This document shows, piece after piece, positions 24,001-29,900 of a stretch of 64,000 bases of DNA. The position numbers were made by a program. Location: assembly GCF_055900595.2 (NCBI RefSeq), contig NZ_CM148325.1. One strand, written 5' to 3'. Position 1 is the first letter of the stretch, and every line of letters begins with the position of its first letter.

Positions 24001-27000
24001 TGGTCATCAACTTGTCGAAGAAGTATTGCAACTTACCTGCGGCCCACTGCGCTTCGTGCGCGCGGCACAAAATGCGGCCCAACGTTGACTGGATGCCGGA
24101 AAGCGGCAGGTTCAACGCCGACATCATGCGATCGACCGACTCAACGGTCGCAGCATCGCCTTTGTGATAAGCGATCAATGTGCGTGCCAGCGGCCCCACT
24201 TCCATCGCGTTACCGCGCCAGCGTGGCGCTTTGATCCACGAGTAGCGTTCCTGTTCATTCAGCTGCTGAATGTTGGTATCGCTGCCTTTGACATCGCCGG
24301 GGTTGTACCACGGGTCGGTAATACCATCGAACGGATGACGCCCGACCTGATCGTTGGGATAACGATACCAGGCGTGATCGACAAATTCCTGCACTTGTTG
24401 CGGATCGACTAAATCCACTGGCAGCACATTTTTGAAGTCGCCGTTGATCACCGCGCCGCCAGGCATTAGCAGACTTTTCTCGCCAAAGTCGTTGGCAATA
24501 TCCGGGAACGCCCCGTAACTGAGGACACATTTATCAGAAAGACCAGTGCCGATTTCGCTCCACGGTTTGTTGAACTGACCGATGGCTAAAGCGTCGGGGA
24601 TCATCACGTTATTAATGAAATCCGCCGTGCGGGTAATGATCGACTGCACCAGATTCAGGCGCTCCATATTGACCGCCCCGACCGCGCCACTTTCGTCAAT
24701 GTTGATAGCGCACGGCATCCCGCCAACAATCCAGTTTGGATGTGGGTTTTTACCACCAAAGACCGCGTGGATTTTGACAATTTCACGCTGGAAATCGAGA
24801 GCTTCGAGATAGTGAGCAAAGCCCATCAGGTTGGCTTCTGGCGGCAGTTTATACTGCGGGTGCCCCCAGTAACCGTTACGGAAGATCCCCAACTGCCCGC
24901 CTTCAACGAATTTCTTCAGTCGGTTTTGCACATCGAAGAAATAACCAGGGGATGATTTCGGCCATGAGGAGAGGGTTTGCGCCAGTTCGGAGGTTTTCCG
25001 CGGGTCGGCTTTCAGCGCATCTAACACATCGATCCAGTCCATCCCGGCAAGCTGATAAAAGTGCACCAGATGGTCATGGCACCAGAGCGTCGCCAGCATA
25101 ATGTTGCGAATGATATTAGCGTTGTCCGGCACTTTAATGCCGATAGCATCTTCGATGGCATAGACCGAAGCCAGAGCGTGTACGCCGGTACAGACGCCGC
25201 AAATACGTTCCACGAACGCCCACGCATCGCGCGGGTCGCGCCCTTGCAGAATGATCTCCAGCCCGCGAAACATGGTGCCGCAGGAGACGGCATTGGTGAT
25301 CACATTCTGATCGTTAATATTCACTTCACAGCGCATGTGGCCTTCAATGCGCGTAATCGGGTCGACCACCAGGCGGCGTCCGGCATTGTTGATGGTGTAT
25401 CCCTGAGTTTCGTACTGAGTGCTCATGCCTGTTTATCCTCATTGCCTGGCTGTTGTTCGGTTTCTGTAGGTTGCTGGTTATGACGTCTGCGCTGATCAAC
25501 GGCGCTGGCGACCGCATGTACACCAACAGCCGCAGCCACCACGCCAAGCGCGGTTAAGCCGACGGTATCAGCGGTGGAATGGGTACCCATTTGTGGAATA
25601 TCGACTACGCGGCTGTAGAATGAACCGCGATCCCAGAAACCATTTTCCGCACAACCCAGACAGCCGTGACCAGACTGGATCGGGAAGGAAACGCCATCGT
25701 TCCAGCGTGTGGAGGAACAGGCGTTATAGGTGGTAGGCCCTTTGCAGCCCATTTTGTACAGACAGTAACCTTTACGGGCAGCGTCATCATCCCAGCTCTG
25801 CACGAACTCTCCGGCGTCGAAGTGAGCGCGGCGATAACATTTATCGTGAATACGCTGACCATAGAACATCAATGGACGGCCCATTCTGTCGACATCCGGC
25901 AGACGATCAAACGTCACCATGTAAGTAATGATGGCGCTCATCACATCCGGGATCGGCGGGCAGCCCGGCACTTTAATGATCGGTTTGTCGGTGATCACTT
26001 TGTCGATTGGTGTGGCCTGCGTTGGATTGGGCCGCGCGGCCTGCACGCATCCCCAGGAAGCACAGGTTCCCCAGGCGATAATCGCACTGGCTCCGGCGGC
26101 GGCGCGTTTGAGTTTTTCAATAAACGGTCGACCACTGCTGATACAGAACATCCCCTGCTCACCCAGCGGTGGATTACCTTCTACTGCGAGGATATATTTG
26201 CCATTGTATTGCGTGATGATGTCTTCAAAGACTTCTTCCGCCTGGGTACCGGCAGCAGCCATCAAGGTATCGTCGTAATCGAGGGAAATAAGAGAAAGAA
26301 TGACGTCCTTCGCCAGTGGGTGAGCGGAGCGGATAAAAGATTCGGTACAGCAGGTGCATTCAAGACCGTGGATCCACACCACAGGAATGCGCGGTTTATT
26401 CTCCAGCGCCCAGGCAATCTTTGGTGCCATTCCCGCGCCTAATCCCAGCGACGTGGCAGCCAGACTGCAATATTTGAGAAAGCTGCGTCGGGTAACGCCC
26501 TGACGCCGCATGGCCTGGTAAAATGTTTCCTCGTTATTCATATCGCACGTCTCTTCTCCTTGCGACACCGGCAGGACACCGGGCGCTTATGGTCGGCAAG
26601 CGACGTCCCTGTAGCAAGGCAAACCATCGCTTCACGTGAGATGCTGAAAACGAAAGCTCATCCTTCTGCACTGGCGCACGTCGCCAGATAGTATTGTTAA
26701 TAAAGCGTAGTGAAACTTTTGCACAAAACAATACAAACCATGTGGTTTTATCTTTTAGCGATAAAAATGGACCTATTTTTCTTTTGCCGGGCATTGGGGA
26801 CGTTTAGCCAGTTGCTAAACGAGTAAAAGAGAAGGAATTCATGGTGATGAAATGATCAAACTGCTGTTATTTCACGCTATCAATGCGGTTTTGGCTGTTT
26901 TTCAGGCAAACGAACAAATTAGGGGTTTACACGCCGCATCGGGATGTTTATAGTGCGCGTCATTCCGGAAGTGTGGCCGAGCGGTTGAAGGCACCGGTCT

Positions 27001-29900
27001 TGAAAACCGGCGACCCGAAAGGGTTCCAGAGTTCGAATCTCTGCGCTTCCGCCAAATAAGATAAGGGGTTAGCTAAATGCTAACCCCTTTTTCTTTTGCC
27101 TGTCGAAATTCTCAGGGCGTTATATTTGCTTAATGACCTGATAATCCGCTGTTAAACCTGTTCCAGATCAAATGCGTAAAGATGGGTAAAACTTCTGGGT
27201 GCCCTTACGCATTATCATTATGCTGCTTAATTAATTACATCTGTCATAGAGAGTGACTCAATGGATCGTATTGTTAGTTCTTCACATGACCGTACATCGC
27301 TGCTTAGCACCCATAAGGTGCTGCGTAATACCTATTTTCTGCTGAGCCTGACGCTGGCCTTTTCGGCGATTACCGCAACTGCCAGTACGGTGCTGATGCT
27401 GCCATCTCCGGGTCTGATTCTGACGCTAGTGGGTATGTATGGTTTGATGTTCCTGACCTATAAAACGGCGAATAAGCCGACCGGGATTATCTCCGCATTC
27501 GCCTTTACCGGTTTTCTGGGTTATATCCTCGGACCAATTCTCAACACCTATCTGTCTGCCGGAATGGGCGATGTGATTGGTATGGCGCTGGGCGGAACGG
27601 CATTGGTGTTCTTCTGCTGCTCTGCGTATGTGCTGACCACCCGCAAAGATATGTCGTTCCTTGGCGGTATGCTGATGGCGGGTATTGTGGTGGTGCTGAT
27701 TGGTATGGTTGCTAATATCTTCCTGCAGCTGCCTGCCCTGCATCTGGCGATCAGCGCGGTCTTCATTCTGATCTCCTCTGGCGCTATCTTGTTTGAAACC
27801 AGCAACATCATTCATGGCGGTGAAACGAACTATATTCGTGCCACGGTTAGCCTGTATGTTTCGCTGTACAACATCTTCGTCAGCCTGCTGAGCATTCTGG
27901 GCTTCGCCAGCCGCGATTAATCTCACCCGCTAACACTTTCATAGCCTCGCTTTATGCGGGGCTTTGTTTTTTGTTACACTGCCGCCAGTCTGATTAAGGT
28001 AGTAATAATTATGCTGATCTTCGAAGGTAAAGAGATAGAAACGGATACCGAAGGCTATCTCAAAGAAAGCAGCCAGTGGAGTGAGCCGCTGGCAGTGATG
28101 ATTGCAGAGAACGAAGGGATTACGCTGTCACCAGAACACTGGGAAGTGGTGCGTTTTGTGCGTGATTTCTATCTGGAATTCAATACTTCTCCGGCGATTC
28201 GTATGCTGGTAAAAGCGATGGCGAATAAATTTGGCGAAGAAAAAGGTAACAGCCGCTATTTATACCGACTGTTTCCGAAAGGTCCGGCTAAGCAAGCCAC
28301 CAAAATTGCTGGCCTGCCAAAACCGGTAAAATGTATCTAACGAATACGAAAATCGGTTAATTCCCCCGAGGGATGATGCGGCTCGCTGAGCACCCGTTCC
28401 ACACGTGCAGAACGCGGGCCGCCACTCTTTAACCACTGCATTAATTTTTCCACCTGCCCTTCTTCACCGCAGGCAACCACTTCCACGCTGCCATCGTCAA
28501 GATTTTTGGCGTAGCCGCTTAACCCGAGTTTTTTCGCTTCGTACTGCGTGGTATAGCGAAATCCTACGCCCTGAACTCGCCCGTAAACCCAGGCAATTAT
28601 GCAGACTTTCGACATTGCTGCTCTCCTTATCCTTAATGGACGCGTTGCAAATCCATGGAAAACTCCGGACAATGACGCCCATTTCTTTGCATCGACAGAA
28701 AAGTAAATTATGAGTGTACGTTTAGTGTTAGCCAAAGGGCGCGAAAAATCATTACTTCGTCGCCATCCGTGGGTCTTTTCCGGGGCCGTTGCCCGCATGG
28801 AAGGTAAAGCCAACCTCGGTGAAACCATCGATATTGTTGATCATCAGGGAAAATGGTTAGCACGCGGCGCTTATTCGCCAGCTTCGCAAATCCGGGCGCG
28901 CGTCTGGACGTTTGACCCCTCTGAATCCATTGACATTGCTTTTTTTACCCGCCGTTTGCAACAAGCGCAAAAATGGCGTGACTGGCTGGCGCAAAAAGAT
29001 GGCCTCGACAGCTATCGTTTAATCGCCGGAGAATCTGATGGCCTGCCGGGTATTACTATCGATCGTTTCGGTAATTTTCTGGTACTGCAACTGCTGAGTG
29101 CTGGGGCAGAATATCAGCGCGCAGCATTAATTAGTGCCCTGCAAACGCTGTACCCGGAATGTGCAATTTACGATCGCAGCGACGTTGCGGTACGTAAAAA
29201 AGAAGGGATGGAACTGACCCAGGGCCCCGTTACCGGAGAGCTACCGCCTGCCCTGCTGCCGATTGAAGAACACGGCATGAAGCTGCTGGTGGACATACAG
29301 CACGGGCACAAAACGGGCTACTACCTGGACCAGCGTGACAGCCGCCTGGCTACCCGCCGCTACGTTGAAAATAAACGCGTACTTAACTGTTTCTCCTATA
29401 CCGGTGGTTTCGCCGTATCGGCATTGATGGGCGGTTGCAGCCAGGTTGTCAGCGTTGATACCTCCCAGGAAGCGCTGGATATTGCACGGCAGAATGTTGA
29501 GCTGAACAAACTGGATCTGAGCAAGGCTGAGTTTGTCCGTGATGATGTCTTTAAATTGCTGCGTACTTATCGCGATCGCGGTGAAAAATTTGACGTTATC
29601 GTGATGGACCCGCCGAAGTTTGTTGAGAATAAAAGCCAGTTGATGGGCGCGTGTCGTGGCTATAAAGACATCAACATGCTGGCGATTCAGTTGCTGAATG
29701 AAGGCGGAGTTCTCCTGACTTTCTCCTGTTCCGGTCTGATGACCAGCGATTTATTTCAGAAAATCATCGCGGATGCCGCAATTGATGCCGGTCGTGATGT
29801 ACAATTTATAGAGCAGTTCCGTCAGGCAGCCGATCATCCGGTGATCGCTACCTACCCGGAAGGGCTATATCTGAAAGGGTTTGCCTGTCGCGTCATGTAA

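Follow-up and report, generated by a model that had tools for sequence, protein, structure and literature searches.

Positions 26926–27099 (plus strand) of the window, the whole 64-kb stretch of DNA that was analyzed, almost certainly constitute the native single-gene transcription unit of E. coli serT, in which the gene's final 60 nt form an unoccupied and scar-free attB. The locus is in the ordinary, already known K-12-type, unoccupied state. In this genome, an attachment site already known to be used by prophages is in its ancestral, unoccupied state, which matters little in itself and raises no new question; the locus can serve as a clean reference for this site and as a negative control in surveys of islands and prophages, and the promoter and terminator annotated for serT are now well supported. 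The following features were located in and around the transcription unit.

25423–26541, minus strand: hyaA (hydrogenase-1 small subunit), the divergent upstream neighbor
26897–26915, plus strand: conserved block upstream of the -35 hexamer, GTTTTTCAGGCAAACGAAC, perhaps a UP element or a site for an activator (putative function)
26926–26931, plus strand: -35 hexamer TTTACA of the serT promoter (consensus scan; invariant in 75/75 enterobacterial loci)
26949–26954, plus strand: -10 hexamer TATAGT of the serT promoter after a 17-bp spacer (consensus scan; invariant)
26955–26966, plus strand: GC-rich discriminator GCGCGTC (26955–26961), predicted start A26962 and 5-nt leader ATTCC
26967–27054, plus strand: serT, tRNA-Ser(UGA), 88 nt with encoded CCA (ARAGORN, Rfam tRNA model)
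26995–27054, plus strand: unoccupied 60-bp attB core at the serT 3′ end for lambdoid prophages of the CP-933M/Sp4 type (alignment with O157:H7 attL and attR)
27063–27099, plus strand: intrinsic terminator with an 11-bp stem and a 5-nt loop (27063–27089), followed by TTTCTTTTGC
27176–27190, plus strand: GTAAA-GATGG-GTAAA, matching the CpxR recognition motif and belonging to yccA
27261–27920, plus strand: yccA (FtsH protease modulator), the native downstream neighbor, with its ATG at 27261

The gene itself was identified by two tools. ARAGORN detected a tRNA-Ser(tga) at positions 26967–27054 of the plus strand as the sole tRNA of the 64-kb window, and the Rfam tRNA model matched it at 57.5 bits. 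The sequence has the cloverleaf of a tRNA with the UGA anticodon and a long variable arm, and it ends in a genome-encoded CCA. Its orthology with serT is indicated by identity to the K-12 gene and by the conserved order hyaA-serT-yccA. The segment reaching from just upstream of the -35 hexamer to the start of yccA (26914–27275) is 100% identical to K-12, and because it agrees base for base, knowledge obtained in K-12 is directly transferable. The window thus shares with the K-12 serT locus (tRNA-Ser1, UGA; between hyaA and yccA) the tRNA, the promoter, the leader, the terminator, the spacer to yccA and the flanking genes, whereas a few substitutions are found farther upstream, in the hyaA-serT spacer. 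The codon UCA is read by tRNA-SerT alone. A permissive Rfam scan also returned RAGATH-19, sX4 and ctRNA as candidates overlapping the locus; their scores of 20–22 bits, compared to gathering scores of 50–86, mark them as chance matches.

Upstream of the tRNA, the consensus scan revealed the hexamers TTTACA and TATAGT, which together match the consensus at 10 of 12 positions. The discriminator GCGCGTC that follows them contains six G or C residues out of seven. Transcription would be driven by this sigma-70 promoter (TTTACA-17-TATAGT with GC-rich discriminator) from about A26962, which lies at the typical start distance, 7 nt past the -10 hexamer, and gives the 5-nt leader ATTCC that would subsequently be cut off by RNase P. 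The published leader of serT (Ser1) is 5 nt long (PMC7049720, Table 1), exactly the length predicted from the -10 hexamer, and the proposed start is consistent with this measured leader. The hexamers are spaced by 17 bp, inside the range of 17 ± 1 bp, they are placed before serT and they are followed by a GC-rich discriminator, as is characteristic of sigma-70 promoters of stable RNA genes. With the promoters of tRNA and rRNA genes serT has in common the near-consensus hexamers, the 17-bp spacer, the GCGC discriminator and the short leader, but it does not carry the extended -10 TG. GC-rich discriminators are a hallmark of stable-RNA promoters under stringent control, and stringent or growth-rate control of serT (ppGpp/DksA) through its discriminator is predicted. 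Judging from its sequence and conservation, the promoter is probably strong.

The conservation of these elements was assessed in 86 serT loci from other species, collected using the 5′ half of the tRNA as query; the counts refer to the 85 tRNA copies having full flanks. The motif TTTACA-N17-TATAGT was kept in 75 of these 85 copies, always with a spacer of 17 bp, which occurred in 48 different sequences. It was present in all enterobacterial copies but one, the exception being the second of two tandem genes in L033, and the copies devoid of it belong mainly to distant taxa (Bordetella, Lysobacter, Orbaceae, and Rhodobacteraceae). In each of the 75 loci, the discriminator starts with GCGC or TCGC. 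Moreover, a hairpin with a T-run was found 3–12 nt past the CCA in 70 of the 75 loci, represented by 48 different hairpins. This count was obtained with an explicit search for stem, loop and T-run, which replaced a minimum-free-energy fold of the whole sequence that had under-counted terminators (22/75).

In the window, the terminator hairpin begins 8 nt past the encoded CCA and comprises 11 bp, six of them GC. Its folding energy is -21.6 kcal/mol (z = -5.97), a value that none of 200 shuffled sequences reached. The GC-rich hairpin immediately preceding a U-tract, with a conserved structure and a variable sequence, corresponds to an intrinsic terminator; across the species compared, the structure of the predicted serT terminator is kept while its sequence changes. 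Located 8 nt past the CCA, it is predicted to end the transcript ahead of yccA, a gene with a promoter region of its own. The initial annotation had described a serT tRNA preceded by a near-consensus sigma70 promoter with a GC-rich discriminator and followed directly by a terminator and yccA. All parts of this description were corroborated: the placement of the tRNA by ARAGORN and Rfam and its identity as serT by K-12 identity and synteny; the promoter (TTTACA-17-TATAGT, GCGCGTC) by its conservation across genera and by the 5-nt leader; and the terminator by the fold of the 27063–27089 hairpin and its recurrence in 70 of 75 loci, with the yccA ATG following at 27261.

Two other readings of the transcription unit were considered. 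The promoter could be a chance consensus match, with serT being transcribed from elsewhere, and the scan by itself would allow this, as it returned as many promoter-like sites as shuffled sequence (2 sites in 2 kb versus 2.0 expected), so that the match to the consensus does not by itself exceed chance. We nevertheless regard this as very improbable. The upstream gene hyaA is divergent and thus provides no co-directional upstream transcript, neither the hexamers nor the 17 bp between them change in 75 species although the spacer sequence varies, and the predicted start yields exactly the published 5-nt leader. The serT promoter is considered real because of the K-12 identity together with the published leader, the conservation of the promoter in 75 loci and the conservation of the downstream hairpin; the position of the predicted promoter and its invariance over 75 species with 48 spacers are not chance. 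At the other end of the unit, the hairpin might be an inefficient terminator, so that serT and yccA would be partly co-transcribed. The two genes are co-directional with just 206 bp between them and the T-run is interrupted (TTTCTTTTG), both of which would fit such read-through, but it appears unlikely given the strength of the hairpin (-21.6 kcal/mol) and the presence of a terminator-like hairpin in 70 of 75 species whatever gene comes next. It is also opposed by the CpxR-type box that yccA possesses upstream: the sequence GTAAA-GATGG-GTAAA fits GTAAA-N5-6-GTAAA, the motif recognized by CpxR, and yccA is a known member of the Cpx regulon, positively regulated by CpxR (PMC9600279). Finally, occupied strains carry a prophage between serT and yccA with no apparent harm. 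Transcription of serT as a single gene, from its own promoter to this terminator, remains the preferred reading.

The initial annotation had further stated that no integrase, no direct repeat of the tRNA 3′ end and no foreign DNA accompany serT, and it had proposed to search for a second copy of the 3′ segment and to compare the locus with strains bearing islands. When a 33-mer and a 24-mer from the serT 3′ end were used to look for repeats, with up to three mismatches allowed, the gene itself was the only match in the 64-kb window. Likewise, blastn-short (word size 7) with the 60-nt core or the whole tRNA returned from the window only chance matches of 8–14 nt with E values of at least 0.24, and the attL and attR prophage arms of O157 showed no similarity to any part of the window. 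Gene content was read from the annotated chromosome of Z0117EC0005, which aligns to the window with 98.9–99.99% identity and essentially without gaps. According to the annotation of this near-identical genome, no integrase or phage gene is present over positions 1–64000 of the window, nor was any found between hyaA and yccA. The genes of the window are all core genes, including torA/C/R/T/S, yccM, gnsA, the csp genes, gfc, etp, etk, app, hya, serT, yccA, and tusE, and continuing with sulA, ompA, pqi, uup, ssu, pepN, pncB, and asnS. The etk gene is intact in the window (726 aa) and an apparent pseudogene in the closest public genome.

Over the 41 kb that were compared, the genes are collinear with those of K-12, and the one structural difference is an IS1 that is present in K-12 and absent from the window. 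The G+C content around the serT locus (0.49–0.51) is unremarkable. Hence none of the marks of an occupied site, namely an adjacent integrase, a direct repeat of the tRNA 3′ end, extra DNA relative to reference strains, or an atypical composition, was found, and the 60-bp core at 26995–27054 is present intact and identical to the attL and attR cores of O157:H7. Because no inserted element is present and the core is intact, the serT site of the window is an empty attB. The last 60 nt of serT double as attB for a family of lambdoid prophages with a tyrosine integrase of the CP-933M/Sp4 type, and the site is predicted to be competent for integration. The earlier statements consequently held on each point: the window contains core genes only and a K-12-identical serT-yccA spacer, it holds no duplicated serT 3′ segment, and compared with island-bearing strains it shows the empty site, lacking both the integrase and the 60-bp repeat.

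The occupied state is exemplified by the O157:H7 strain BB24-1, which carries a lambdoid prophage of approximately 47 kb between serT and yccA. This prophage encodes tail, head, lysis, Q and replication functions, sodC, and fragments of EspF-repeat and EspV genes, and its tyrosine integrase gene lies immediately upstream of yccA. The O157:H7 prophage at this position is CP-933M/Sp4. The integrase of the serT prophage shares 97% identity with its counterpart in Escherichia phage Evi. At attL of O157:H7 the tRNA is restored, and the terminator behind it comes from the phage and is similar but not identical to the native one, whereas at attR a partial copy of the tRNA precedes the native terminator and yccA. 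The 60-bp core and the flanking genes hyaA and yccA are thus common to the window and the occupied site; the prophage of about 47 kb, the integrase next to yccA, the partial serT 3′ copy at attR and the replacement terminator at attL are found only in the latter.

A small, decayed island or prophage remnant could be hidden at serT, in which case the locus would not really be clean. Remnants of this kind do exist at serT: only approximately 4.6 kb are left in strain Z1323CEC0019, where they comprise effector fragments and tail-fibre genes together with IS1203 and an integrase that is truncated. This strain shows which type of scar may be left at serT, and the window carries nothing of that kind. 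Positions 26914–27275 are identical to K-12, including all 206 bp from the tRNA to yccA, similarity to the O157 attL and attR arms is missing throughout the window, and the core is unrepeated in it, which leaves practically no probability for a hidden remnant. An ancient insertion followed by precise excision may have taken place at serT; such an event would be traceless, and the present content of the locus would be unchanged. The clean, unoccupied attB is accordingly retained as the description of the site.

The frequency of this state was determined among 5426 complete E. coli genomes. The stretch hyaA-serT-yccA-tusE is in one piece in 4661 of them, and in the others the match breaks just past serT. 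The integrase-attR-yccA junction of the CP-933M/Sp4-like type, counted at a coverage of at least 80%, occurs in 742 genomes (13.7%, about one in seven), and these account for almost all split serT loci. Among the few genomes left over, one bears the decayed 4.6-kb remnant described above, which derives from this element. Genomes with an empty site match the attR query from query position 1172, consistent with the 60-bp core. One apparent exception to a chromosomal location, the ‘plasmid’ pZ0117ECO0133-3 with yccA and tusE, is a frameshift-ridden stretch of chromosome that contains the attR junction of a serT prophage and is most likely an assembly artefact. According to the literature, prophages also use serT in STEC O121:H19 (PMC8767318) and in CC119, where up to three prophages are inserted in tandem (PMC10132054), and an Stx2f phage was found inserted at serT in E. 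albertii (PMC10673567). Among the cross-species loci, the type strain of E. albertii has the same attL arm as O157, and a similar ‘...TTGGTATA’ arm lies past the terminator in about nine other species. These attL-like arms suggest that the serT site is used widely.

Finally, the cross-species comparison drew attention to the block GTTTTTCAGGCAAACGAAC at 26897–26915, upstream of the -35 hexamer. In the consensus of 52 enterobacterial loci, several of its positions are at least 90% conserved. It may be an activator or UP-type site, so far uncharacterised, through which the sole UCA-reading tRNA is controlled. A second reading concerns the look-alike terminator of the serT prophages, which might preserve the 3′-end formation of serT after integration. 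Both readings are minor and tentative, and we consider them rather doubtful; if true, they would leave the verdict on the serT locus unchanged.

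Comparison of the serT prophage attL of O157:H7 (L002:21152-21200) with the window (27055-27099) revealed a terminator-like hairpin, AAGGGGTTACCAAATGGTAGCCCCTT, and a T-run which are supplied by the prophage and lie directly after the rebuilt tRNA. This prophage-borne hairpin is closer to the native serT terminators of Citrobacter and Salmonella than to that of E. coli.

In Cedecea neteri (L012) and two Mangrovibacter species (L035 and L074), the serT CCA is followed by a non-terminator sequence, TTTTTATGGCAAAATCAATAACTTACAG..., which is the same in all three loci although they belong to different genera. 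Beyond this sequence, L074 carries DUF6387 and H-NS-like genes. These observations suggest that a second island type, different from the prophage, uses serT. A tandem duplication of serT was found in an uncultured Cedecea (L030) and in an Enterobacteriaceae MAG (L033), where the second copy starts about 50 nt past the first with no terminator in between.

The serT-prophage attR junction was also found in L006 (NZ_CP098186.1, pZ0117ECO0133-3, 26,994 bp), a plasmid by annotation, together with the chromosomal genes yccA to yccS, IS21 and IS5. The majority of these yccA-yccS genes are frameshifted. The record is probably a long-read misassembly and not a real replicon.

The yccA gene is known to be under positive CpxR regulation (PMC9600279). 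The CpxR motif GTAAA-N5-GTAAA has a perfect match in the window, which by its sequence is a candidate CpxR box:

Window 27176-27190, plus strand: GTAAA-GATGG-GTAAA, putative CpxR recognition site upstream of yccA

Within the 41 kb compared with K-12, the only structural difference is IS1D, which lies between cspH and gfcA in K-12 and is absent from the window (about 8900). The closest public genome, Z0117EC0005, is 99.7% identical to the window over 42 kb. Its annotation gives etk as a pseudogene interrupted by an internal stop, whereas the gene is intact in the window, and therefore the window does not come from that exact strain:

Window 14464-16644, plus strand: etk, intact ORF of 726 aa

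Rfam matches above the gathering score were obtained at three further places in the window:

Window 7724-8146, minus strand: cspA thermoregulator model, covering the cspG mRNA region
Window 53772-53845, minus strand: PyrD leader, upstream of pyrD
Window 58296-58374, minus strand: naRNA4, REP-type nucleoid-associated RNA

All three are expected for this region of the E. coli chromosome.
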